From contig DATFCV010000055.1 in NCBI GenBank assembly GCA_035252645.1, positions 1 to 32,000 on the forward strand: DNA of 32,000 bases, given 5' to 3'. The position numbers were made by a program, and so were the translations under genes. The notes beneath the pieces are model-generated. The model saw nothing but the letters and a program-made list of their open reading frames with translations, was not told the DNA's origin and searched no databases. Of this stretch, positions 6,655 to 30,246 are shown in pieces (position 1 is the stretch's first letter; each line of letters opens with the position of its first letter). The stretch is from Nitrosotalea sp. GTDB lineage: Archaea > Thermoproteota > Nitrososphaeria > Nitrososphaerales > Nitrosopumilaceae.

Positions 6655-6715
6655 AATTCGTTTCTGTATCCGACCACCTTGCTTGCTTTTATGAAAATTT
6701 TGTGAGAGAAAACTC

Positions 6716-6805
6716 GGACGGGTCGCCAAGATAGGTATGGCGAGGATCTGAAAAATCCTTCACTGGGTTCGCCTCAGCTCGTGGGTTCGAATCCCACCCC
6801 GTCCG
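6716..6805 (+). tRNA. Class-II tRNA with a 21-nt variable region; the anticodon loop reads CU-GAA-AA and the isotype is ambiguous (Ser-like body with G73)
   Basis: Hand fold: acceptor GGACGGG/CCCGTCC, D arm GCC-AAGATAGGTAT-GGC, anticodon arm AGGAT-CTGAAAA-ATCCT, variable hairpin CTGGG-TTCG-CC(T)CAG, T arm GTGGG-TTCGAAT-CCCAC, and discriminator G. A TATA-like TTTTATGAAAATTTT lies about 25 nt upstream. No CCA is encoded. Confidence 0.85.
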
Positions 6806-7029
6806 GGTTCTACCTTGATAATGACACTAGATCTATTTATGTTTGCCAGCTTTTTTCCCGATTCATGAAATGGACTTGCAATCAAATTTTATGTCAACTG
6901 GGTAAAACGATAATCTGTATTGATCTTCTATAATTATTCTAGCATGGCGAAATAGGTATCCTTTACTATGGAACACCATTGCAGCTGAATTTTAGAGGAG
7001 ACAGATGCAGTGTCCTCGAATGACTTCTG

Positions 7030-8529
7030 TCAGCCAATCACATTGACGGAAAATTGTGACTGCTCCGAGATTGGCATAAAGTACACCCCGTCAACTTCTA
7101 CCAAAATGCTGTAGGTGCCAGCATCCTGGAACTGGTAAGGTATGGTGACGGTCCCCTCCGCAGTGTGCAGGAATGGAGTCCCGTACACCGGCGCGCCGCC
7201 TTTGCTGATGGTAACCCTGTAATCCACATGCCCCTCAGGCGTGCCCGTATTGCCGTCTAGGAAGCTTAGCGCAAGATTTGCCGGCCTTCCCACCATTAAG
7301 TTTGCAGGATCTGTTGACAACGCAATCTTGAGACCACCTGTAGTAATTGCCTGCGTCCCGTTGCCGCCCTCAACGGTATACAGTGCAAGCATACCTCCAT
7401 TAATGTGGTCATTTACATGGCAGTGCAGCAGCCAAGTGCCTGCGTTGTCAGGATACATGTCAAGCGTCTTCATGCTCATCGGGAGAAGCTCTACCATGTC
7501 AGTTCTCCCGCCGTTCATAAGGAGCGTGTTCCCATGCCAATGCGGAACATGTAGGTCACTCTCGCCTCCCATGCCCGCTACATACCACCTCACATGTGTA
7601 TCTTCATTCATCTTGAGGCCTGGAAGGTTTCCAAAGATGTATCCATTGATGGAATACTTGAGGTTGCTTTCCAAAAAGTTCGGGTCGCTATAGTTTACCT
7701 GCGATGCGGTCTCTCCTGCGAACTCCTTGAGATTGGATGCAAAGTAGGGTGAGTTTGTCTCGTTGAAAATGGTAAACAGTGTTACAAATTCCCGGTCGAC
7801 GCCCTTGGGCGTTCCGTTCTGGTTTGCCTCGCCATGCCTTGTTATTATCATCGGACCCACAAGCCCCGCCGTGGTATCCGTGATTTCATTTACATGCGAG
7901 TGGTACATCCAGAGTATGGAACTTGGATCGTCAGGGCCGGGCCCTGCCCTTTCAGGGACACGCCAGACATAGGTAAAGGTCCCGCCAGGTTGTACTGCCT
8001 CGCCTCCTTTTTGCGAGTCTGGAACTCCGTCAAGATAGGGCGCCCCCTCTGATGCCTTGTCATAGAGGACGCCGTGGGGGTGCATGCTTGCAGGAATTGT
8101 GCAGTTGTTCTTGAAGACGACGTCAATAGTGTCACCGACCTCGGCATGAATGACAGGCCCCAATATGCCAAGCCAGGCGGGCCTTGGCAGGGGTGTCGTA
8201 AACGTGCCATCAGTGTATCCGCGATAGACGCACTTGATGTACGTGCTACCTATCCTGTCCACGCCGGTTTGCGTGTAAAGGGCAGTAGTCGGATCGTCTG
8301 CAAGGGCCTTGCCTGTTATCCCGTTGACACCTGTCGGCGCGTAGTTCCACCTGACCTCCTCTGCCTCGACATAGTAAGTGCGTGTGACTCCTTGATACTG
8401 GGTGGGTACCGCCGCCTGTATTACTGGTGCAGGCTGGGAACTGCCAGCAAAGGTGTAGGCGACAATGACCACAAGCGCAGATGCCAGCGCAACAATAATC
8501 CCAAGCATGACGTAGGTCCGGGCTGCCAT
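7030..8529 (-). CDS. Membrane-anchored two-domain multicopper oxidase (ceruloplasmin/hephaestin-like) with an extra C-terminal ~100-aa beta-rich domain
   Basis: 499 aa with an N-terminal signal anchor (VMLGIIVALASALVVIVAY). Copper-ligand motifs are HPHG, WMYHSH, HVPHWHG and HCHVNDH...GGM. The stretch YYVEAEEVRWNYAP...RIGSTYIKCVYRGYTDGTF...LGILGPVIHAEVGD closely resembles ceruloplasmin A-domains. Confidence 0.95.
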   Translation of the reverse strand: MAARTYVMLGIIVALASALVVIVAYTFAGSSQPAPVIQAAVPTQYQGVTRTYYVEAEEVRWNYAPTGVNGITGKALADDPTTALYTQTGVDRIGSTYIKCVYRGYTDGTFTTPLPRPAWLGILGPVIHAEVGDTIDVVFKNNCTIPASMHPHGVLYDKASEGAPYLDGVPDSQKGGEAVQPGGTFTYVWRVPERAGPGPDDPSSILWMYHSHVNEITDTTAGLVGPMIITRHGEANQNGTPKGVDREFVTLFTIFNETNSPYFASNLKEFAGETASQVNYSDPNFLESNLKYSINGYIFGNLPGLKMNEDTHVRWYVAGMGGESDLHVPHWHGNTLLMNGGRTDMVELLPMSMKTLDMYPDNAGTWLLHCHVNDHINGGMLALYTVEGGNGTQAITTGGLKIALSTDPANLMVGRPANLALSFLDGNTGTPEGHVDYRVTISKGGAPVYGTPFLHTAEGTVTIPYQFQDAGTYSILVEVDGVYFMPISEQSQFSVNVIG

Positions 8530-8945: not shown

Positions 8946-9034
8946 GGCGGGCTCGCCTAGCAAGGTCTAGGGCGGGAGATTGAGGATCTTCAAGGCGTCC
9001 AACGTCTTCACGGGTTCAAATCCCGTGCCCGCCG
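8946..9034 (+). tRNA. tRNA-Leu (anticodon GAG), class II; G at position 73 followed by genomically encoded CCA (to 9037)
   Basis: Hand fold: acceptor GGCGGGC/GCCCGCC, D arm GCC-TAGCAAGGTCTAG-GGC, anticodon arm GGAGA-TTGAGGA-TCTTC (G37), an 18-nt variable arm and T arm ACGGG-TTCAAAT-CCCGT. A TATA-like TTTTTATAAAAAAA lies about 25 nt upstream. Confidence 0.85.
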
Positions 9035-9074
9035 CCAGCCTTGGCTATGGTATGACATTTTTGATTAATAAATC

Positions 9075-15493: not shown

Positions 15494-16414
15494 TTGAAGT
15501 CAATCAACTATACCCTCCTTGGAGACGAGTCCATTGCAAAGGACTTTGGAAAGAAGGGAACCGCGACAGACCTTACAATTTATGACAAGAAGGAGACGGG
15601 AACGGTAAAGACCTGGACCATACCTACGGGCTTTCCTGACAAGATACAGCCCCTCCTCCAGGCGATAAACATGGGCGAGTACGTCGTGTTTCACGTCTCA
15701 AAGCTTGACAAGTTCACAGGAGAGCAGATTGTGGCACTTGACGTACTCGGGAAGACAAAGGGCATAGTGACCCATTCCTACGAGGTCGACGGCGAGAAGC
15801 TGAAGACGATGATCAAGGGAACTGTCGTCGAGCAGTACAAGATGGTTGACCTTGCTGACCTCAAAAAGGAGATGGACGCGTTAGAGCCTGTATCGCAGGG
15901 GGGGGCCTTGAGGATTCCTATAGACCACTGCTTTGACGTAAAGGGCGTAGGTACGGTAATACTTGGAAAAGTTGCACAGGGCGCGGTCAAGGCATACGAC
16001 AAGCTCAAGCTGCTTCCAAAGGGAGACGAGGTCCTGGTAAAATCAATCCAGATGCACGACGACCCTGTAGAGGAGGCAACCTCGCCTGCAAGGGTAGGCC
16101 TTGCAGTAAAGGGAATTGTGTCAGACGACGTACAGAGGGGAGACCAGCTCACGATAGGGGACGGAGTAACCGTATCCCAGGATATTGCCCTTGACTATGT
16201 GCAGAACAAGTTCTTCAAGGACAAGATTGCAGAGGGGCAGACGTTCACAGTAAACATAGGCCTCCAGGCAAGGGCAGCCAAGATAGTATCACTGAGCCCG
16301 ATGAAGCTCTCGCTTAACAAGCCTGCCGCATTTACAAAAAACGAGATTTGCGTAATCCTCAAGCCCGAGTCCCAGACAATAAGGATAGTTGGGAGCGGGC
16401 CTATAGTGGGCTAG
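15494..16414 (+). CDS. EF-Tu/EF-1A-like protein with a degenerate (non-P-loop) G domain and an intact beta-barrel domain II
   Basis: 306 aa with a TTG start. Domain II is clear (LRIPIDHCFDVKGVGTVILGKVAQGAVKAYDKLKLLP...VKSIQMHDDPVEEATSPARVGLAVKGI..DDVQRGDQL). The N-terminal ~130 aa has no GxxxxGK[ST] or DxxG, and only SKLD where NKxD is expected. Confidence 0.75.
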   Translation: MKSINYTLLGDESIAKDFGKKGTATDLTIYDKKETGTVKTWTIPTGFPDKIQPLLQAINMGEYVVFHVSKLDKFTGEQIVALDVLGKTKGIVTHSYEVDGEKLKTMIKGTVVEQYKMVDLADLKKEMDALEPVSQGGALRIPIDHCFDVKGVGTVILGKVAQGAVKAYDKLKLLPKGDEVLVKSIQMHDDPVEEATSPARVGLAVKGIVSDDVQRGDQLTIGDGVTVSQDIALDYVQNKFFKDKIAEGQTFTVNIGLQARAAKIVSLSPMKLSLNKPAAFTKNEICVILKPESQTIRIVGSGPIVG

Positions 16415-18801: not shown

Positions 18802-19776
18802 TTGAAGCCGATTTGCAGTAGATCGTTGCAGAATAGAAGCGTGCTTGTTGCAATTGCGATAATCGCGTCTCCGATAATGTTTGCACTTGCGGTATTTCCA
18901 GATTCCTTCAGTCTTGGCTGGAACCAAGGGAGGGGAGGATTTCTCTTTGCACTTGCATTTATCGCAGCAGAGATAATGGGCCTGAAACTTGACATTCCAA
19001 AGAAGAGGCTTTATGCCGCAATCCCGCTTGCCGCCGCAGTAATTGCTTACCTAGTTGGCGTCGAGTACGGACTAAAGGACTACCTCATAGCAGTCGCGCC
19101 CCAGTTCCACGTGCAGCTCAAGGACTCGTGGACATGGATGTGGGACTTTATCGTTATTGCCGCGTTTTTCGTGGGGGTCCTTACGCTGCTCTTTGGCAGG
19201 AGGTGGATTAGGATCTCGCCTGCAGGCCCGATATATGCCGCAGGAACTGCGATAATACTCTCGCTTGACGCGTTCTTCCCGTACGACTCGCTTGGCCCTC
19301 TCCAGTATGTCGTACCGTATCTTGTAAGGCTTGACGTCTTTTTGATTAACACGTTCCACTTTGGGGCAGCCACGGCAACAGGCAACATAATGTTCCTCAA
19401 CGGAGACCACGGGCCTTTTGCCCTCCAGGTGTTCTGGCCGTCGGCAGGGGTCCACAGCATGATAATCTACTCGCTTGTGATGATGGCGTTCCTCCTGAAG
19501 ATGAACATCCCGAGGAACCGCAAGGCGGCCTATTTTGCGATGGGCGTGGTTGGAACAATCGGGGTAAACGTCATCAGGATACTCTCGCTCTCGCTGTTTG
19601 TGCTCAAGGTCTCAACTGACGTGAACCAATTCCAGTCCTTCCACGGGATTGCGGGGGAGATAATGTTCCTTCCATGGCTCTTTGTCTTCCTGCTTATAGT
19701 CACTTATGTCGAGACCAAGAGGATGAAAAGAAAGGAGTTGGAGGTTGCTGGAAAGGGACCTGATCAAAATCAATAG
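18802..19776 (+). CDS. Exosortase/archaeosortase-family polytopic membrane protein (thaumarchaeosortase-like)
   Basis: 324 aa with about 8 hydrophobic helices. WPSAGVHSMIIYSL aligns to the sortase ..CSG[IL]RS.. block, followed by GVNVIRILSL (N-x-x-R) and FHGIAGEIMF (His block). The start could be TTG 18802, GTG 18841 or ATG 18877. Confidence 0.75.
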   Translation: MKPICSRSLQNRSVLVAIAIIASPIMFALAVFPDSFSLGWNQGRGGFLFALAFIAAEIMGLKLDIPKKRLYAAIPLAAAVIAYLVGVEYGLKDYLIAVAPQFHVQLKDSWTWMWDFIVIAAFFVGVLTLLFGRRWIRISPAGPIYAAGTAIILSLDAFFPYDSLGPLQYVVPYLVRLDVFLINTFHFGAATATGNIMFLNGDHGPFALQVFWPSAGVHSMIIYSLVMMAFLLKMNIPRNRKAAYFAMGVVGTIGVNVIRILSLSLFVLKVSTDVNQFQSFHGIAGEIMFLPWLFVFLLIVTYVETKRMKRKELEVAGKGPDQNQ

Positions 19777-22103: not shown

Positions 22104-22326
22104 AAGAAACTGGTACGTCCTTGTCGCTGCCACCTGTACGGCCGCAATTGTCGCATATTTCCTGGTTGGGAGCAACGGCTGTCCCATGCAGCAACTCGCC
22201 CTTGAGCAAGACATAAAAAAGTACGGTTCAAGTCCCGACCCAGAATCCTGTGCCGCTATAAACGAGCGAATTTCAGGATATGACAGCCAGTGCAAGGCAA
22301 GCTTTGAGATCCTCGACTGCGGCTAG
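22096..22326 (+). CDS. Small membrane-anchored protein with four extracytoplasmic Cys
   Basis: 76 aa. It has an N-terminal helix WYVLVAATCTAAIVAYFLV followed by a soluble tail with 4 Cys. It overlaps the alba 3' end by 8 nt. Confidence 0.45.
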   Translation: MSRRNWYVLVAATCTAAIVAYFLVGSNGCPMQQLALEQDIKKYGSSPDPESCAAINERISGYDSQCKASFEILDCG

Positions 22327-22943
22327 AGGGAGCCTGCAAGGAAAACCGTCCCGAAATAAACAAGGACGCCCGCAAGGGCCACCATGAGCATCCTGTAGTT
22401 CTTTCCGGAGAGTATCGCCCTGCCGCGCCCTGAAAGGAACCCCACTGTCCCAAGCCAGCCATAGTCCATCCAGATGTGAAAGCCAAAGACAAGCCCAATG
22501 CCGACAAGCGAATAGAGGGCCACGGCATCGGAGATGAGCTTGAACCCTATGGTGAGCCACCACACGATAAAGAAGGGATTGAGGGCGCTTAGAAAAATCC
22601 CGGCATAAAACGGCCCGTGCTTTGACTGCCGCTCAGTTGGTGTCTTTTGAAGAGCAGACCTAACCTGGAGGCCGGCAAAAACAAAGAGGGCAATTGCCCC
22701 AAGCACCGAGACGTATTGGCGAAACTGGGGGAGGGCTCCAAGCGATAACGCGCCAATCCCTATGAGCAGGACAAGCGGACCCTCCACTATTGTATGTCCA
22801 AGTGCCATCCTGATGCCGGACCTCCAGCCACCTCTGATGCCGTAGGCAACGTTTGACGCAAAAAGCGGGCCTGGCGACATTACGCCCGAGACCGAGATTG
22901 CAATTACCGTCGCTGCAAATTCCGTAATGGAGGGCATTGGCAC
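22323..22943 (-). CDS. LysE/RhtB-family amino-acid exporter
   Basis: 206 aa with six hydrophobic segments. The N-terminal SPGPLFASNVAYGIRGGWRSGIRMALGH is typical of LysE translocators. The start is GTG 22943 or ATG 22937. Confidence 0.85.
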   Translation of the reverse strand: MPMPSITEFAATVIAISVSGVMSPGPLFASNVAYGIRGGWRSGIRMALGHTIVEGPLVLLIGIGALSLGALPQFRQYVSVLGAIALFVFAGLQVRSALQKTPTERQSKHGPFYAGIFLSALNPFFIVWWLTIGFKLISDAVALYSLVGIGLVFGFHIWMDYGWLGTVGFLSGRGRAILSGKNYRMLMVALAGVLVYFGTVFLAGSL

Positions 22944-23192
22944 TCAATATGCAAATATCTTGGTCAGGGGCCCTATCTTCTTCGATATAAAGTCAAGGAC
23001 CTCGCCCGGCTCTGTCATATAGAAGAACTCGTCTTTTCCATCACGCGCTATGTTTACGCAGTATCTCCGCGATGTCCTGTTTATGTAGGCATGCTCAGGC
23101 TCGTTCTCTATCCTTATTCCCTCATCGGAATCCAAGACCCTGAGGTGTTTTTCAAGCGCCTCGACTGAAATCTCTCTTTCCTGGTAGCTCAT
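22944..23192 (-). CDS. Hypothetical 82-aa protein, stop/start-coupled to the upstream PAC2-like gene
   Basis: The real start is probably Met46 of the tracked ORF (MSYQEREISVEALEKHLRVL...). Its ATG overlaps the upstream TGA as ATGA at 23189-23192. Confidence 0.5.
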   Translation of the reverse strand: MSYQEREISVEALEKHLRVLDSDEGIRIENEPEHAYINRTSRRYCVNIARDGKDEFFYMTEPGEVLDFISKKIGPLTKIFAY

Positions 23193-23902
23193 CCGTAGAT
23201 AGCATCTCGGAGTGGGCCGGCATCTTCCTCGGCCTGCTTCATCTGCGACTCGATGTTTTCGGCCTCGCTCATCAGCGTCCTCAGGTCGCAAGATGCGCCA
23301 GGCACCAGCTTTGATACCGCCATGCAAATCTCAGCCCCTGCCCTAAAGTCAGGCCCGGTCTCCTTGCCGGTGTAGAGGAGCACTATGACGTTTGTGTCTG
23401 TAATGGATCCCTCGTTTAGCAAAATCCCTGGTATTCCTGGCACCGTCCCGTTCTTGAGTACTGGAATGTCGGCGTCTGCAAGCTTTTTCCTTGCCGCGTC
23501 TGTTGTCGCAACGCCTATGACTGCGGGCTTTTCGTCGTTTTTTACCGCCGCTGCAGAAACTATCAGAGAGCACTTGTGGTCGTTTGCCCACTTGAGCATG
23601 CACCTTGCCACCTCCCTGTGGAGGGATTCGTGCGGCGTGAGATACGACGAAAACACGGCAACCTTGAGCTCTTCGTTTACAAATATCCTTGCAGGAAAGC
23701 CTGGCTTTTCATCCCTTATAATTGAGATTGGTGGAAAAAGTTCCGAGTCTAGGACTCCTGCCAGCACAAATTGGGCAGTAGTGTTTATGAGGGATTCCGT
23801 TGCTATGGCGTTTGCAAGGCCGGCGTAAGGAAACCCGTCGATGACAAAACCTCCTTGGATGTTTACTTGCTTTATCTCGCGTATGAAAATTCCATTATCC
23901 AT
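23189..23902 (-). CDS. PAC2-family proteasome assembly chaperone (PbaA/PbaB-like)
   Basis: 237 aa. GGFVIDGFPYAGLANAIATESLI... and the overall pattern fit COG1938/PAC2. The C-terminus ...RDAIYG is an HbYX-type tail. Confidence 0.8.
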   Translation of the reverse strand: MDNGIFIREIKQVNIQGGFVIDGFPYAGLANAIATESLINTTAQFVLAGVLDSELFPPISIIRDEKPGFPARIFVNEELKVAVFSSYLTPHESLHREVARCMLKWANDHKCSLIVSAAAVKNDEKPAVIGVATTDAARKKLADADIPVLKNGTVPGIPGILLNEGSITDTNVIVLLYTGKETGPDFRAGAEICMAVSKLVPGASCDLRTLMSEAENIESQMKQAEEDAGPLRDAIYG

Positions 23903-23954
23903 GAATTTTCATATTTGTTACGCCTTTTTAAATGGAATCGTCAGGGCAGCCGTC

Positions 23955-25499
23955 CTATTCCGTAGCTACGCGTATGAGTTCTGCAATCTGCTTGCCCTTG
24001 CCCTGTGATATTGCAGAAATGCCCCCAGTGAGGCTCTCACTTACGATTCCCTTGTCGGCTAGCACCTTCACGGCGTTAAGCGAGGTGTATCCTGCCATGC
24101 ACACAAGCAGCGACTTGTGCGAGCCCTCAAGCGCCTTGTTTATCGTATCGGGAACCTTCTGGGTCATGAGCAACTGCTCGGCCTCCCCCGCGGTAGGGAC
24201 TATGACCTTGCTCTTGTCGATGCCGAGGGTCTTTGCAATCATTTCTATCCCCTCCTCGCGCGGCGTGTATTGTGTGTGGATCCACACCACCTTGTCGTAA
24301 TCGCCAATGCTTGACTGGGCCTCCTCAAGGGACACCTGAACCCTGGCCTGCTTCTCTGACATGCTTTCAAGGTTCTTCCTGTACTTTGCAATTCCGTCTG
24401 CTACTATTACCACAAATTTACTGCCGCCTCCAAAGTTTGCAAGCTGCATCGTGGCATAGAGTGCAAGCGCGCTGCTCTCGCCCATGTCGTGGCCCTTGGA
24501 TACAAAAAACTTTAGCAACTTCCTTGCCTGTGTAAAATCTACCTCGTGCTGGCCCGCGTACCTGTCAGGCTCGTAGAACTTGAGTCCTGCTGCCTTTGAC
24601 TTGGTCCTGATGCCTGCAACGTCCTGGTCTCCCTGCGGAAAGACCACGTGGAGCGACTTTTTGTTGTATTTTTCGGAGAGGTACCTGCTCAGTCCACCGG
24701 ATGTCCCGCCTGTGCCAAATGTGCAGACTATCCCATAGTCTCCAAGAGATTGGCCACTTGCGCGCAACTGCTGGTCAATCTCGGGACCTGTGACGGTCCT
24801 GTGAACCCCGACGTTAAGTTCGTTGTCATACTGCTCCGGGCAAAACCCCCCGTAAATTTTTGCAAGCAGTTTTGCCAAGTTTATGATGTCTTGCTTTGCC
24901 AGAATCTCATGCGCCTCGGTTATAGCGCCGTCAAAAATTGTAGGATCAAACCCAAGTTCGGAAAGCTGCGAGCGTATGTTTGCAGCGGTTGCCTTTGCCG
25001 CAAGGACGTTTGGGCTGTCCTTCATCCCTGGCGCCGGGCAAATGTCCATGTCAAGATTGAGGATGCGTATCTTCTCGTTTCGCAGCTCCTCAAAGACCCC
25101 TTCCTGGAGCTTCCTTGAAACTAGTGCTACCACGTCAAGGCCCAGCCTTGAGAGTTGCCCCAAGGCAATCCCAAAGTTGCCAGACGTTGCCTCAAAGATG
25201 GGCTTGCCGTTCCTTATCTTGCCAGTAGCTATGGCGTCATGGATGATGTGTACGGCGGGCCTTACCTTTATCGAGCCGCCCGGCAGCTTGGAATCGAACT
25301 TGCCAAAAACCCTCAGCTCTTTGTCGTCGAGGTTTACGTTGAATTCCTTCTTTGCACACTCCTTAAGATCACTAGTGATATCTACAAGCGGGGTTGCGTT
25401 TACAATGCCTCCGTCATTGCCAAGGTGTGGTACCTTGGACCAGATTTCGGCCTCAAATTTTTCAAGCAGTAACTTGTCGGTTTCTGTGCTCAAATTCAC
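23955..25499 (-). CDS. CysK/CBS-family PLP-dependent beta-replacement enzyme fused to a C-terminal rhodanese domain
   Basis: 514 aa. It has the PLP lysine block PGGSIKVRPA, the substrate loop EATSGNFGIALG and the phosphate loop FGTGGTSGG. The C-terminal ~100 aa has a rhodanese active-site loop LLVCMAGYTSLNAVKVLADKG. Confidence 0.85.
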   Translation of the reverse strand: MNLSTETDKLLLEKFEAEIWSKVPHLGNDGGIVNATPLVDITSDLKECAKKEFNVNLDDKELRVFGKFDSKLPGGSIKVRPAVHIIHDAIATGKIRNGKPIFEATSGNFGIALGQLSRLGLDVVALVSRKLQEGVFEELRNEKIRILNLDMDICPAPGMKDSPNVLAAKATAANIRSQLSELGFDPTIFDGAITEAHEILAKQDIINLAKLLAKIYGGFCPEQYDNELNVGVHRTVTGPEIDQQLRASGQSLGDYGIVCTFGTGGTSGGLSRYLSEKYNKKSLHVVFPQGDQDVAGIRTKSKAAGLKFYEPDRYAGQHEVDFTQARKLLKFFVSKGHDMGESSALALYATMQLANFGGGSKFVVIVADGIAKYRKNLESMSEKQARVQVSLEEAQSSIGDYDKVVWIHTQYTPREEGIEMIAKTLGIDKSKVIVPTAGEAEQLLMTQKVPDTINKALEGSHKSLLVCMAGYTSLNAVKVLADKGIVSESLTGGISAISQGKGKQIAELIRVATE

Positions 25500-25625
25500 T
25501 TACATTTCAATGTTGGATTGGATGATCTTATAAAAGATACTCGAAATTTCCGACGGTGTCAGGGTTTAAAAAACACGAGCCGCCCAGCAGATATCTTTTT
25601 TTCCTCTGGGTTTTTAACAAAAGGC

Positions 25626-25871
25626 ATGGAATCACTTTACATTCTCATAAACTGCGACCTGGGCTCTGAGATCGACATAATAAGCCAGCTAGCAAAAATT
25701 CCAGAGGTAAAGGAGGTCCGTGGGACATACGGCATTTACGACATTTTTGTAAAGGTCCAGGCCGACTCTAATGCGATACTTGAGGAAATCGTCACTCACA
25801 AGATAAGGAGAATTCCAAAGGTGCGCTCTACAGTTACACTGACACCTATCATGTCCCAGGGCGGACGCTAG
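25626..25871 (+). CDS. Stand-alone RAM/Lrp-AsnC ligand-binding domain protein
   Basis: It starts at Met37 of the tracked ORF. MESLYILINCDLGSEIDIISQLAKIPEVKEVRGTYGIYDIFVKVQADSNAILEEIV..KIRRIPKVRST fits the ~80-aa RAM domain. It ends 8 nt before the next gene. Confidence 0.7.
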   Translation: MESLYILINCDLGSEIDIISQLAKIPEVKEVRGTYGIYDIFVKVQADSNAILEEIVTHKIRRIPKVRSTVTLTPIMSQGGR

Positions 25872-25879
25872 ACCATCCC

Positions 25880-27040
25880 ATGATTTCCCTTTTCAACTCT
25901 TTTTCTTCAAAAAATGAAACGTTCGAGCCTTTTCAAAAAGACTTGGCCAGGGTTTTCATCTGCGGCCCTACGCTTTATGACCTGACCCACTTGGGCCACG
26001 CAAGAATCTTCCTGACCTACGACCTGCTTTGCAGGCACCTAAACGAGCGAGGCTACAGAACAGACGTGCTTGTCAACATGACTGACATTAACCAGAGCGT
26101 CTTTACCAAGGCAAAGGCCGAGTCGAAGGACTGCCACTCGGTGGCCAAGTTCTACGCGGAAAAGTTTGTCCAAGACCTGGCACTTCTCAACATCCGAAGC
26201 GTAACGCGGCTTGCATATGTTTCAGACTATGTAGGACAAATAGAGAACCATGTCGCCAGGCTCCTTGACCTCAAGCTTGCTTACCATGCAAACGGCAACG
26301 TCTACCTAGACTCCTCAAAGGACGAGCGTTACGGCATGCTCTCAAAGCAGTCAAAAGGCCAACTATTGCTCCACCGCCTTGACATAGGCCCTAACAAGAA
26401 AAGCCAGAACGACGTCATGCTGTGGAACTGTTCTGAAAACTTTGACTTTACCTGGCAAAGCAGATTCGGCCGGGGAATTCCGTGGTGGCACATGCAGGAC
26501 ACCACGGTTGCCCTTGAAAACTTTGGAAGGAACTACGACATCCACGGCGGAGCAAGGGAGCTTCTCTACCCCCATCATGAGGCGCACCTTTCACAGTACA
26601 AACTTCTTACAGGCTCGGAAACCCCGGTGAAGACCTGGATGCACGTAGGCCTTGTACTTGTCGGAGGGGATAAGATGTCAAAGTCTCTTGGGAATGTGGT
26701 GTGGTCAAGAGACCTTGCTGAAAAATACGGCCAGAACCTTATCAGGCTGTACCTGTTTTCAACCCATTATCGCAAGGACATCGATTTCAGGGAGGAAGAC
26801 ATTGCGGAAAAAAATGCACAACTGGAAAGGATATACAAGGCCGGACTGAAGGCATCATCACAAACCGACCCTGAGATTACATCCCTTGTGGAAGGCTTTC
26901 TTTCCTCGCTTGACTGTGACCTTGACTCGCCAAGGGCGCTTGAAATCTTTGATGCGATTTGTTCCAAGGTCTTGTCTGGTGCAAAAGTAAGCCGTACTGA
27001 TTTCGAACGGATATGTCGGGTTCTGGGGCTGGCGACCTGA
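25880..27040 (+). CDS. Class-I CysRS-fold ligase lacking the anticodon-binding domain (MshC-like architecture) with substituted metal-site residues
   Basis: 386 aa. It has FICGPTLYDLTHLGHAR (CGPT + HIGH), IHGGARELLYPHHEAHLSQ and KMSKSLGN. It ends at ...RICRVLGLAT. The position equivalent to E. coli CysRS GWHIECS reads WWHMQDT. Confidence 0.85.
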   Translation: MISLFNSFSSKNETFEPFQKDLARVFICGPTLYDLTHLGHARIFLTYDLLCRHLNERGYRTDVLVNMTDINQSVFTKAKAESKDCHSVAKFYAEKFVQDLALLNIRSVTRLAYVSDYVGQIENHVARLLDLKLAYHANGNVYLDSSKDERYGMLSKQSKGQLLLHRLDIGPNKKSQNDVMLWNCSENFDFTWQSRFGRGIPWWHMQDTTVALENFGRNYDIHGGARELLYPHHEAHLSQYKLLTGSETPVKTWMHVGLVLVGGDKMSKSLGNVVWSRDLAEKYGQNLIRLYLFSTHYRKDIDFREEDIAEKNAQLERIYKAGLKASSQTDPEITSLVEGFLSSLDCDLDSPRALEIFDAICSKVLSGAKVSRTDFERICRVLGLAT

Positions 27041-27735
27041 TACCGCGGGTCGAGGACCTGGACCTTGCCTTCACAGGGCTGTGGGCCAACTCGGTCAAGA
27101 TGGATTGCGGAACGCTGTTTTTCAGTGACGAAATGCCAAACGATGTATTTTTCGACAAGTTTGCAGGAATCACATGCCTTGACGAAAAAACAATCAACGA
27201 TTTGCTTGCCCTCTTTGAGCAACACCACACAGTTCCGTACTTTTATCTCTTGGAAAGGGAAGACCTTGAGGAACTGCTGAAAAGAAAAGGCTTCAAGCTT
27301 TACGACACGCAGCATGTACTTGCAAAGGCTCCCTCGCATTCTGACAAGGTGGCGTTTAGGATCTCGCAGGGTGAGGCGCGAAGGTGGGCAGAGACATTTT
27401 GTAGGGCCTATGACTGCATGGATTGGCTCGGTCCAGTGAAGGCGGCAGTCGGGAATACGGCAACATCAATTGAATACTACCTTGACAAATCAAAGGGCTC
27501 TTGCATGGCACTGTACGAAAAAAACTTGATACTGGGGCTCTATTGCCTTGGAACCGTACCTTCAATGAGGAAGATGGGGCTTGCCGCGTCCCTTGTTGAG
27601 TTTGCTGCAGGTGAGGCCAAGAGGAGGGGGCTTGAGGTCCTGATGCTTGAAACCTACCAGAGGGACGGACTAGTCAATTTCTACACTAGGCTGGGCTTTA
27701 GGGAAATTTACAGGAAAAAAATCTACACTACTTGA
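27013..27735 (+). CDS. GNAT-family N-acetyltransferase
   Basis: 240 aa. The C-terminal GNAT core is LGLYCLGTVPSMRKMGLAASLVEFAAGEAKRRGLEVLMLETY...NFYTRLGF. The tracked ATG overlaps the preceding ligase gene by 28 nt, and an internal Met at 27100 is an alternative start. Confidence 0.8.
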   Translation: MSGSGAGDLIPRVEDLDLAFTGLWANSVKMDCGTLFFSDEMPNDVFFDKFAGITCLDEKTINDLLALFEQHHTVPYFYLLEREDLEELLKRKGFKLYDTQHVLAKAPSHSDKVAFRISQGEARRWAETFCRAYDCMDWLGPVKAAVGNTATSIEYYLDKSKGSCMALYEKNLILGLYCLGTVPSMRKMGLAASLVEFAAGEAKRRGLEVLMLETYQRDGLVNFYTRLGFREIYRKKIYTT

Positions 27736-28672
27736 GCTTGGCAAGCAGCGCCGAATAAAGGAATGGCAAAACCGTAGTCGCCTCGGCATGAATTGTTGTC
27801 TGCTTGGCATTTTGCGTCACTTTTCCCCATGAGATTGCCTCCCGCACAAGGGCTCCGCTAAGGCTTCCGTCAAACTCCTGTGCGGTCGTGATATATATCG
27901 CATAATCCAGCCCCTCGCGGTACTGGTTCCACCACAGAGTATGGTGCTTTGAGATTCCTCCTCCTATCATTAGGGCTCCAGACTTTTTTGCCTTGAATAT
28001 CAGCCCCGACAAAAGGTCGCCGTCTGATGCCACGTTGAGCCTGAAATCGTTGTGCTTTTGCGTGAACATCCAGATCTGGCTGCCGACAGCTCCGTCCATT
28101 ATGCCAGGCACTACCACCGGTATGTTGTTTTTGTAGGCCCAGTAAAGGAACGAGTCCTCGCCTAGGTTTGCGCCTATGGCCCTGCATACCTCGTGCGTAG
28201 ACATCTCTTTCTTGCCTTTCTCGTATTCCTTTTGCAGAAATGACTGGACCTTTTCCTCTATTAGCGGCCCGTAGCTTTTCAGGGGCACAAGCACGTTCCC
28301 AAGCCTGTGTATTCCCTCGTCTGCAAGCTTGCTGTCGTCAAGAGTAAACGAGCCTTCGAGATAGTTTGAAAAGTGTCTTGCAATGTCATGATCTAGTGCA
28401 CCGCAAGTAGTGATGACAACGTCGCACATCTTGTTCTTTACCATGTCTGCAATTATTCCTCGCAGCCCTGTCGAAACTATGGCCCCTACAAATGACAAAA
28501 ACTTGAGGCACTGCTTGTCCTCAACCATTTCGGTCATAATGTGGAGCCCGTCTGAAAGATTCCTTGATTCAAAACCTCCGGACTTGGCCATCTGATCAAA
28601 AATCTCCCCGATGTCGTCACCCTTTTTTATCGAAATGTCCTTTACTGGCCTTCCCTGCTTCACACCCCACAA
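27728..28672 (-). CDS. dys: Deoxyhypusine synthase
   Basis: 314 aa. GGFESRNLSDG, VVITTCGALDHD, IHRLGNVLVP, GGGISKHH and EFDGSLSGA...EAISWGK match DHS. A TATA-like TTTTATAG lies about 25 nt upstream, so the transcript looks leaderless. Confidence 0.95.
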   Translation of the reverse strand: MWGVKQGRPVKDISIKKGDDIGEIFDQMAKSGGFESRNLSDGLHIMTEMVEDKQCLKFLSFVGAIVSTGLRGIIADMVKNKMCDVVITTCGALDHDIARHFSNYLEGSFTLDDSKLADEGIHRLGNVLVPLKSYGPLIEEKVQSFLQKEYEKGKKEMSTHEVCRAIGANLGEDSFLYWAYKNNIPVVVPGIMDGAVGSQIWMFTQKHNDFRLNVASDGDLLSGLIFKAKKSGALMIGGGISKHHTLWWNQYREGLDYAIYITTAQEFDGSLSGALVREAISWGKVTQNAKQTTIHAEATTVLPFLYSALLAKLK

Positions 28673-29178: not shown

Positions 29179-30246
29179 TTGGGTAAGAAGATCAAGATTG
29201 CCATAGCGGGAATGGGCAACTGTGCGTCTGCACTGATCCAAGGCTCGAAATACTATAAGGATAATCCAAACGATACCGTAGGTCTCACCGCCTACAACTT
29301 GGGCGGATATGAACCGGGGGATATTGAAGTTGTTGCCGCTTTTGACGTTGCCGACACCAAGGTAGGAAAGGACATTTCAGAGGCAATCTATGCAAGACCC
29401 AACAACACAATCACCATCGCGGAGGTGCCAAAAACAGGTGTTCTGGTACAGAAAGGACCGACTAAGGACGGCCTTGGCAGGCACCTTGGCAGGGTAGTCA
29501 CTCCGTCAGGCGAGCCTGACGTGAACGTCAAAAAGATCCTTCAGGATACAGGTGCCGAGATGCTTGTCAACTACCTTCCTGTGGGGAGCACAGAAGCCGT
29601 AAGGTTTTACGCAAGCCAAGCTCTCGAGGCAGGAATAGGGTTCCTCAACGCCATCCCGGTTTTCATCGCATCCGAGCCAAAATGGCAGCAGATGTTTGCC
29701 GAGAAGAAGATCCCGCTTGCAGGAGACGACGTAATGAGCCAGCTTGGCGCAACCGTGGTTCACAAGACGCTTGTCAAGCTATTTGTAGACAGGGGAGTGC
29801 TAGTGGACGGCACGTACCAGCTCAACATTGGCGGAGACATGGACTTTTACAACATGCTTGACGAGGAGAGACTTGAGGACAAGCGAATAAGCAAGACCAG
29901 CGCCGTCAAGGCGATGGCAGACTATGACATACCGATGAGGATCGGGCCTAGCGACTATGTGGACTTTATCGACAACGAGAAGATCTGTTACATCAACATA
30001 GAGGGCAAGTACTTTGGCAAGATACCGATCAAACTAGACCTCAAGCTGAAGGTAATAGATGCCTACAACAGCGCCGGTATCATGATTGACGCAATAAGGG
30101 GCTTGAAGGTAGCCCTTGACAGGAAGCTCTCAGGGCCAATGACCAGCATCTCATCGTACTGCTTCAAGCACCCGCCCATTCAGATGCCGTACACTGAGGC
30201 AAAGAGCGCATTCAAAGAGTTTGTTGATGGAAAACGCGAAAGGTAG
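29179..30246 (+). CDS. ino1: myo-Inositol-1-phosphate synthase (archaeal short type)
   Basis: 355 aa with a TTG start. IAIAGMGNCASALIQG, NYLPVGS, AGDDVMSQLGATVVHKTL and LNIGGDMDF match archaeal MIPS. Confidence 0.92.
   Translation: MGKKIKIAIAGMGNCASALIQGSKYYKDNPNDTVGLTAYNLGGYEPGDIEVVAAFDVADTKVGKDISEAIYARPNNTITIAEVPKTGVLVQKGPTKDGLGRHLGRVVTPSGEPDVNVKKILQDTGAEMLVNYLPVGSTEAVRFYASQALEAGIGFLNAIPVFIASEPKWQQMFAEKKIPLAGDDVMSQLGATVVHKTLVKLFVDRGVLVDGTYQLNIGGDMDFYNMLDEERLEDKRISKTSAVKAMADYDIPMRIGPSDYVDFIDNEKICYINIEGKYFGKIPIKLDLKLKVIDAYNSAGIMIDAIRGLKVALDRKLSGPMTSISSYCFKHPPIQMPYTEAKSAFKEFVDGKRER

Follow-up and report, generated by a model that had tools for sequence, protein, structure and literature searches.

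A short paralogue of cysteinyl-tRNA synthetase (CysRS) and a GNAT acetyltransferase are encoded side by side in a 32,000-nucleotide stretch of a Nitrosotalea sp. assembly (GCA_035252645.1, contig DATFCV010000055.1, positions 1 to 32,000 of the forward strand), which is referred to here as the window. The CysRS paralogue, hereafter the ligase, lies at 25880-27040 (+) and is 386 aa long. The GNAT gene (27013-27735, +; 240 aa) overlaps its 3' end by 28 nt, and the two genes are translationally coupled through this overlap. A RAM protein of 81 aa (Lrp/AsnC ligand-binding, PF01037) is encoded upstream at 25626-25871 (+), with an ATG start at 25626, and ends 8 nt before the ligase. These coordinates match the GNAT overlap and RAM spacing described in an earlier note on the window, which was made from the DNA letters alone. 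Sequence comparisons make it rather likely that the ligase-GNAT pair, joined here by RAM, is a dispensable biosynthetic cassette acting outside translation. In this cassette, cysteinyl-AMP would be formed, the cysteinyl group transferred to an amine acceptor and the product N-acetylated, with RAM acting as a sensor. The product is probably a small molecule containing N-acetyl-cysteine, and the reaction is probably not tRNA charging.

Ligase fold, motifs and truncation

Residues 15-310 of the ligase match the Pfam family tRNA-synt_1e (PF01406; E = 4.6e-77). HMMER and MAFFT alignments show the ligase to be collinear with two proteins: E. coli CysRS, over residues 1-358, and the MshC of M. smegmatis, over residues 21-366, which is also the span aligned to 3c8z/8hfm. 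The motifs CGPT (with Cys28), HLGH (the HIGH motif), WWHMQD, HHEAH and KMSKS (at residue 265) are all present. The earlier note had proposed this collinearity with the E. coli enzyme, together with the CGPT, HLGH, W-H, HHE and KMSKS motifs, from an alignment by hand, and both are confirmed. In E. coli numbering, Cys28 and His234 are kept, Cys209 is replaced by Asp and Glu238 is replaced by His. Both substitutions had been read correctly by hand.

The HIGH, KMSKS and CGPT motifs, the W-H pair and the first His of HHE are invariant across the ligase family, as are Cys28, His234, Trp205 and Thr68. Thirty-nine invariant columns, along with HIGH, KMSKS and the Zn ligands, are kept at only 33-40% identity to the window ligase. 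Length is constant at 386 aa in more than 100 clusters. From its sequence, the ligase appears to keep all that is required for aminoacyl-adenylate formation and for cysteine selection via a metal-thiolate.

The ligase is made up of a Rossmann catalytic core, a connective peptide (CP) insertion, a stem contact (SC) fold and a truncated helical bundle. It covers positions 2-374 of the 466 positions in the cysS hidden Markov model (HMM), and the protein ends inside the helical bundle. No Pfam match to PF23493 (CysS_C) or DALR_2 (PF09190) is found in the ligase. There are no residues past the end of the alignment, compared with 55-90 in full-length CysRS. The AlphaFold2 (AF2) model has a predicted local distance difference test (pLDDT) score of 95.4 and shows five C-terminal helices, after which the chain ends with no extra domain. 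The claim that this is a CysRS-fold ligase without a C-terminal anticodon-binding domain is therefore supported by the Pfam match, the HMM coverage and the model.

Relationship of the ligase to CysRS and MshC

A homologue search of 1.84 billion cluster representatives, followed by motif typing, gives four sequence types. The first is canonical full-length CysRS with GWHIECS and HHENE. The second is a large set of full-length Asp-type proteins (455-495 aa) with GWHIEDTA and HHE(A/C)E, which NCBI names cysteine--tRNA ligase in Thermoplasmata, Bathyarchaeia, Aenigmarchaeota and Nitrososphaerales. The third, clade B, combines the Asp-type motifs of the second with a short length of about 400-437 aa. 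The fourth, clade A, to which the window ligase belongs, is also short, at about 350-390 aa, and carries WWH.QD. The Nitrososphaeraceae alone contain several clusters below 50% identity.

The earlier note had treated Asp at position 209 as exceptional and as a signal of a new substrate. This is not upheld. Full-length archaeal CysRS, in a large clade, also carry Asp at this position, and Asp alone therefore predicts no new substrate. In the sequences compared, Asp is most simply the ancestral state of the archaeal lineage that gave rise to the ligase. The Cys/Asp/His/His site that had been considered distinctive is also not retained. At position 238, His occurs only in the Nitrosotalea/Nitrosopumilaceae branch, and the sister lineages carry D (Nitrososphaeraceae, HNESD), L, Q, I or Y. 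Because this position is variable within the family, a conserved Cys/Asp/His/His site is not a feature of the family. Position 238 seems simply to have lost constraint, as in MshC, where it is Ser.

Residues were compared among 85 clade-A, 59 clade-B, 60 full-length Asp-type and 50 full-length Cys-type sequences. In clade A, D72, F181, K185, R202, G204 (to Trp), E208 (always to Gln), E238, I239, E243 and P249 are replaced (E. coli numbering). These positions are 85-100% conserved in the full-length CysRS of both types.

The cysS equivalog model of NCBIfam (TIGR00435) has a cutoff of 340 bits. The window ligase scores 285.7 bits and clade A as a whole 261-303, compared with 383-425 for clade B and 497-560 for the full-length proteins. 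With the MshC model (TIGR03447; cutoff 485.1 bits), the window ligase scores 219.6 bits, all groups fall between 156 and 285, and genuine CysRS reach 284-285. A crude neighbour-joining (NJ) tree, built from 152 sequences, puts MshC among short bacterial proteins of the Cys type and the window ligase among archaeal sequences of the Asp type. Clade B is placed near clade A in this tree, and both are far from MshC.

Assignment of the ligase as a cysteine--tRNA ligase equivalog is rejected, given its score below the TIGR00435 cutoff, the lack of PF23493 or a full DALR_2 and the replacement of invariant residues. Assignment as MshC is rejected on its score (219.6 against 485.1 bits) and on the separate clade it occupies in the crude NJ tree. 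From these comparisons, the ligase appears to follow the architectural plan of MshC without being a member of the MshC family. The MshC/MshD likeness suggested in the earlier note therefore stands for the architecture and for the order of ligase then GNAT, and does not stand for family membership. The loss of about ten CysRS-invariant residues, the sub-cutoff cysS score and the obligate GNAT partner argue that the ligase is non-canonical.

The GNAT partner

The GNAT protein has an N-terminal domain of about 105 aa with no recognised fold, followed by a classical GNAT domain. Its motif A (R186-x-x-G189-x-A191) corresponds to the acetyl-CoA type pattern R/Q-x-x-G-x-G/A; R186 does not vary, and conservation of G189 and A191 is 90% or higher. 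The Pfam families Acetyltransf_7, _1 and _10 match 25-26 of the 26 GNAT members, and FR47 is also matched. There is no FemAB or Leu/Phe-transferase Pfam match among the GNAT homologues. A Fem or L/F-transferase-type aminoacyl-tRNA transferase is rejected as an identity for this protein, since the Pfam matches are to classical families only and the acetyl-CoA motif is conserved.

MshD is a tandem GNAT of about 300 aa. The MshD model (TIGR03448) has no match to the window GNAT at E <= 1. It gives 12 weak matches among the 26 homologues (best E = 0.0028), comparable to those of the rimI and generic GNAT models. MshD is also absent from the best 60 of the 221 PDB profile matches of the GNAT (E <= 1). 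Membership in MshD is rejected because the matches are weak and generic and the protein has 240 aa and one recognised GNAT domain.

Gene order was compared across 80 related loci from GTDB species representatives, and counts are given for the loci with enough flanking sequence. GNAT is directly downstream of the ligase in all 71 testable clade-A loci (Nitrosotalea, Nitrosopumilaceae MAGs (metagenome-assembled genomes) and Nitrososphaera; 41-73% identity), and its position relative to the ligase is in a fixed register in nearly all of them. The short clade-B ligases, which come from groundwater, lake and mesopelagic Nitrososphaeria, have a GNAT of 245-265 aa immediately downstream in 7/7 of the loci looked up. 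In contrast, full-length Asp-type CysRS have an adjoining GNAT in none of four independent contexts. The conservation of the ligase-GNAT adjacency, which the earlier note had left to be checked in relatives, is thus complete among the loci covered in both clades.

The clade-A and clade-B GNATs align over their full length with 21-26% identity (E 1e-17 to 1e-24). Nine residues are invariant in both clades (E14, W24, D44, W125, G175, Y177, G180, R186 and Y224). The full-length homology and these shared residues indicate that the pair is an ancient, co-diverging two-gene unit.

The RAM domain (E = 7.3e-13) spans residues 6-72 of the 81-aa protein, which has no helix-turn-helix. RAM is immediately upstream of the ligase in 65 of 78 testable loci and is missing from Nitrososphaera-type loci; this third cassette member is lineage-specific. 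Of the RAM-ligase-GNAT triplet proposed in the earlier note, the ligase-GNAT part is universal among the testable loci and the RAM part is not.

Distribution and a second cysS family

Supplementary tables of a 2025 ISME J paper (PMC12448741) cover three strains of ammonia-oxidising archaea (AOA): N. viennensis, N. franklandus and N. maritimus. For N. viennensis, these tables give myo-inositol-1-phosphate synthase (MIPS; NVIE_003260), GNAT (NVIE_003270), 'cysteine--tRNA ligase' (NVIE_003280), radical SAM (NVIE_003290) and LysE (NVIE_003300). This is the gene order of the Nitrososphaera loci analysed here. In the same tables, the NVIE_003280 family is found in N. viennensis only among the three strains. 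A separate cysteine--tRNA ligase family is labelled 'NV+NF+NM', which covers all three AOA, and includes NFRAN_0108 and Nmar_0967 (PMC12448741). The ligase is therefore not the sole CysRS homologue, a situation that would have overturned the reading of the earlier note.

The syntenic stretch of N. maritimus, as it appears in the tables, contains Nmar_0646 (LysE), 0647 (PAC2), 0648 (deoxyhypusine synthase, DHS), 0649 (MIPS) and 0651 (SMC). RAM, the ligase and GNAT are missing from it (PMC12448741). It follows that the triplet is a dispensable cassette set into a backbone that is itself conserved.

A tblastn search with full-length CysRS finds no second CysRS copy in the 80 loci or in the window. 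Supplements of three AOA genome papers contain no relevant entries for a full-length cysS in a Nitrosotalea-type genome.

Genomic context

Four backbone genes surround the cassette in the window. A LysE-family exporter (22323-22943, -; PF01810) and a PAC2 gene (23189-23902, -) are on the upstream side. DHS (27728-28672, -; PF01916, E = 9.8e-104) is convergent with GNAT, and MIPS (29179-30246, +; PF01658) is 1.44 kb past GNAT. Among the related loci, MIPS is within 4 kb of the module in 58/60, and LysE is conserved near the module in both gene orders. The LysE-PAC2-DHS-MIPS backbone persists in N. maritimus without the module, and the adjacency of MIPS and LysE is therefore no evidence for an inositol-containing product. 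The earlier note had the distance to MIPS right, at about 1.4 kb; its use of MIPS as a functional hint fails for this reason. MIPS, LysE and DHS are rejected as functional partners on the same grounds. The clade-B pairs have no linkage to MIPS, LysE, RAM or DHS.

A CysK/CysM-like pyridoxal phosphate (PLP) enzyme of 514 aa (23955-25499, -) is divergent from the ligase and lies outside the module. The Pfam PALP domain covers residues 62-367, and the protein scores 99.7 bits with the cysKM subfamily model (cutoff 344). The earlier note had described a CysK-like PLP enzyme fused to rhodanese. The PLP enzyme and its divergent orientation are borne out, and the rhodanese fusion is not confirmed. The C-terminal extension of about 140 aa has no Pfam match, whether to Rhodanese (at E <= 1) or otherwise; its one weak match (E = 0.005) is to the C-terminal region of MoeB. 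A stretch of this extension, VCMAGYTS, is similar to the active-site loop of rhodanese. Only 4/80 related loci contain the CysK-like gene, which sits in a variable insertion hotspot; it is rejected as a module partner and no longer serves as supporting context. The hotspot is the PAC2-RAM interval (equivalent to about 23900-25625 in the window) and is seen in eight related loci (L003, L005, L013, L022, L024, L035, L040 and L045). Judged by eye from their N-termini, the open reading frames (ORFs) it contains look like TFIIB-like, transposase-like, response-regulator-like or large secreted proteins (759-1002 aa).

The 3' ends of GNAT and the convergent DHS overlap by 8 nt (27728-27735), which leaves no room for separate terminators. 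A 127-aa ORF at 22944-23327 (-) has no Pfam match and is kept in most related loci with 38-61% identity by tblastn. It shares 139 nt with the 3' part of the PAC2 gene. An internal Met may be its true start, which would abolish the overlap.

At three clade-B loci (L090, L102 and L106), genes for an acetyl-CoA synthetase (ACAS_N/AMP-binding) and an HhH-GPD glycosylase are found upstream. At two others (L087/L088), the HhH-GPD gene is present and there is no acetyl-CoA synthetase in the retrieved flank. The acetyl-CoA synthetase could feed GNAT or be plain synteny.

There are no tRNA genes in the module neighbourhood, either in the window or in 14 related loci. Farther from the module, ARAGORN places a tRNA-Phe (GAA) of 92 nt at 6715-6806 (+), which is long for tRNA-Phe and suggests an intron. 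A tRNA-Leu (GAG), also of 92 nt, is at 8946-9037. A 306-aa ORF (15494-16414, +) has EF-Tu domain 2 (PF03144) as its sole match, with no GTPase domain detected; it is possibly a translation-factor-like protein that has been truncated or has diverged. In N. maritimus, a homologue is listed in a paper on archaeal SelB-like factors. Other content of the window (7030-8529, -; 18802-19776, +) includes a multicopper oxidase, an exosortase/archaeosortase-like membrane protein (a weak match) and a CDC48-type AAA ATPase. The first kilobase (1-1000) has a markedly low GC content (35%, compared with about 50%).

Proposed function and alternatives

In the proposed pathway, the ligase would activate L-cysteine with ATP to give cysteinyl-AMP, because HIGH, KMSKS and the cysteine pocket (Cys28, Asp209, His234, Trp205 and Thr68) are retained. 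This pocket set is that of the Asp-type archaeal CysRS. The cysteinyl group would then be passed to a non-tRNA acceptor, most simply an amine, with an amide formed as by MshC. This step is suggested because the C-terminal anticodon-binding domain is missing and D72, F181, K185, R202, G204, E208, E238 and E243 are replaced. GNAT would use acetyl-CoA to N-acetylate the product, by analogy with MshD most likely at the free alpha-amino group of the cysteinyl moiety. RAM, judged from its family, is probably an amino-acid sensor that tunes the cassette. An inositol-glycoside acceptor, as in mycothiol, is possible and is no longer favoured by the gene context.

A more specific form of this proposal is offered tentatively. 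The cassette may make an as yet undescribed low-molecular-weight thiol that contains N-acetylcysteine. This would be an archaeal counterpart of mycothiol or bacillithiol, with an independent origin in an Asp-type archaeal CysRS. Ammonia oxidisers of land and fresh water would have it, as would other Nitrososphaeria and Aigarchaeota; marine Nitrosopumilus would have lost it. If this is true, many 'cysteine--tRNA ligase' entries in the databases are misannotated.

Several observations weigh against a biosynthetic cassette outside translation. Clade B keeps most of the canonical residues that are replaced in clade A, and it passes the cysS cutoff. By analogy with CysRS*, a truncated CysRS can still charge tRNA. 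Foldseek searches with the AF2 model of the ligase give TMq values of 0.90-0.92 to CysRS (0.92 to tRNA-bound E. coli CysRS) and 0.89-0.90 to MshC, so that structural modelling, which the earlier note had looked to, appears to have no power to separate the two. The tree evidence is crude neighbour-joining only. The AF2 model of GNAT, made from a single sequence, has a pLDDT of 36 and is unusable for the substrate pocket. Genes for an MshA-like GT4 or an MshB-like deacetylase are not found in the 32-kb window. Coexistence with a canonical cysS is documented in N. viennensis, where presence of the core family member is taken from the 'NV+NF+NM' label, and would extend to the window's own lineage by orthology and synteny. 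The clade-B and full-length CysRS loci retrieved are from non-overlapping assemblies, which do not show co-occurrence.

The intact HIGH, KMSKS and Cys-binding residues would also suit an auxiliary, second tRNA-charging CysRS that acts on tRNA-Cys or a special tRNA, like the CysRS* of Desulfobacterales, with GNAT as a regulator or an unrelated neighbour. CysRS* charges tRNA despite the loss of its anticodon-binding domain (PMC9437257), clade B retains nearly all canonical residues with a cysS score above the cutoff, and the fold is close to that of the tRNA-bound E. coli enzyme (TMq 0.92). This explanation is nevertheless unlikely. R202, G204, E208, K185, F181, D72, E238 and E243, which are invariant in tRNA-charging CysRS, are replaced in clade A, and the module has no linked tRNA gene, unlike CysRS*-SelC*. 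Pairing with a co-diverging GNAT in 78/78 loci, against 0/4 for the full-length proteins, is unexpected for a spare synthetase, and the cassette is dispensable in N. maritimus. Transfer of Cys or another amino acid to a macromolecule (a protein side chain, a modified tRNA base or a carrier protein) is quite unlikely as well. Here the ligase would act as PoxA/GenX does on EF-P or GluQRS on tRNA-Asp, and GNAT would acetylate the attached residue. Other truncated aminoacyl-tRNA synthetase paralogues without an anticodon-binding domain act in this way (PMC9437257), the pairs of both clades are unaccompanied by genes for acceptor biosynthesis, and the cassette adjoins DHS, an enzyme that modifies a translation factor. 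The DHS adjacency is, however, backbone synteny that is kept without the module in N. maritimus and is absent at clade-B loci. There is no co-conserved candidate target gene, and MshC, the closest precedent in the CysRS lineage, makes a small molecule.

A shift in amino-acid specificity through the altered metal site, towards a substrate such as serine, 2,3-diaminopropionate, homocysteine or a persulfide that the CysK-like enzyme might provide, is improbable. This is the variant to which the earlier note pointed. G204W and E208Q flank the substrate-contacting Trp205, E238 is replaced, and a CysK/SbnA-like PLP gene is divergent from the ligase in the window. Against these changes, Cys28, His234, Trp205 and Thr68 are invariant in the family, the Asp is shared with full-length archaeal enzymes that are annotated and score as CysRS, and only 4/80 loci contain the CysK-like gene. 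The KIIK lysines, which are said to be required for the persulfide synthase activity of CysRS, are replaced in the ligase by alignment (S73, T76). The loss of many canonical-invariant residues could also mark a decaying or regulatory pseudo-enzyme, such as a cysteine sensor without ligase chemistry. Expression values for N. viennensis, in table columns that are unlabelled, are below those of neighbouring genes (PMC12448741). A pseudo-enzyme is very improbable, since HIGH, KMSKS, the Zn ligands and 39 columns are kept at 33-40% identity, the length stays at 386 aa in over 100 clusters, confidence in the AF2 model is very high and GNAT is co-conserved. A biosynthetic cassette built on cysteine activation and N-acetylation is preferred over these four explanations.

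Comparison with known systems

Reviews recognise only MshC and CysRS* as CysRS paralogues (PMC9437257). The 2020 review of Rawat and Maupin-Furlow reports that InterPro finds no MshA, MshB or MshC in archaea and that mycothiol has never been detected there (PMC7278568). For AOA, Abby et al. discuss only ergothioneine and gamma-glutamylcysteine (PMC7554672). The earlier note referred to genome papers that suggested mycothiol-type thiols in AOA; no paper found in the accessible literature, which did not include the PNAS genome papers, proposes this or describes the cassette. The cassette is apparently undescribed, and the MshC/MshD idea apparently evolved independently in Nitrososphaeria, where it is annotated as or near cysS.

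AOA play a large part in nitrogen cycling, and little is known of how they buffer their redox state. The ligase-GNAT pair offers a two-gene target for a new thiol or cysteinyl metabolite. The cassette is present in soil, freshwater and acidophilic lineages and is missing at the same site in N. maritimus. In it, the CysRS scaffold would have been recruited a second time, and independently, to chemistry outside translation. The cassette would also flag a systematic annotation error, in that clade B passes the NCBI cysS threshold and is named cysteine--tRNA ligase.

CysRS* is, like the ligase, a CysRS paralogue without an anticodon-binding domain that occurs beside the canonical enzyme (PMC9437257). 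It differs in being coupled to tRNA SelC* and SelB* and in charging tRNA; the conserved partner here is GNAT. The canonical Asp-type CysRS share common ancestry with the ligase, with 33-37% identity and the same Asp209, Thr210, Ala237, CGPT, HIGH and KMSKS. At 455-495 aa they are longer, and they carry both a complete DALR_2 domain and the C-terminal PF23493 domain, which spans about 60 aa. They also keep R202, G204, E208, E238, K185 and F181 and have no adjoining GNAT. Clade B has the same truncation as the ligase and a homologous downstream GNAT in 7/7 loci, and is annotated as 'cysteine--tRNA ligase'. Unlike the ligase, it keeps GWH(E/Q)DT, HHEAE and most canonical residues, and it has a weak DALR_2 match.

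MshC shares with the ligase a CysRS core that lacks the C-terminal anticodon-binding domain and keeps HIGH and KMSKS, and both have lost the Glu238 ligand (Ser in MshC, His in the ligase). The two have independent origins, as the ligase branches with Asp-type archaeal CysRS and MshC with bacterial Cys-type proteins in the crude NJ tree, and position 209 is Asp in the ligase and Cys in MshC. The GNAT here differs from MshD in its 240 aa and one recognised GNAT domain. The ligase and GNAT genes form one operon here, which is a further difference from MshC/MshD, and MshA and MshB are not found nearby in the 32-kb window. In both systems, the GNAT acts after the ligase in the pathway as proposed. 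The ligase-then-acetyltransferase logic of MshC/MshD would thus be the best available analogy for the cassette.

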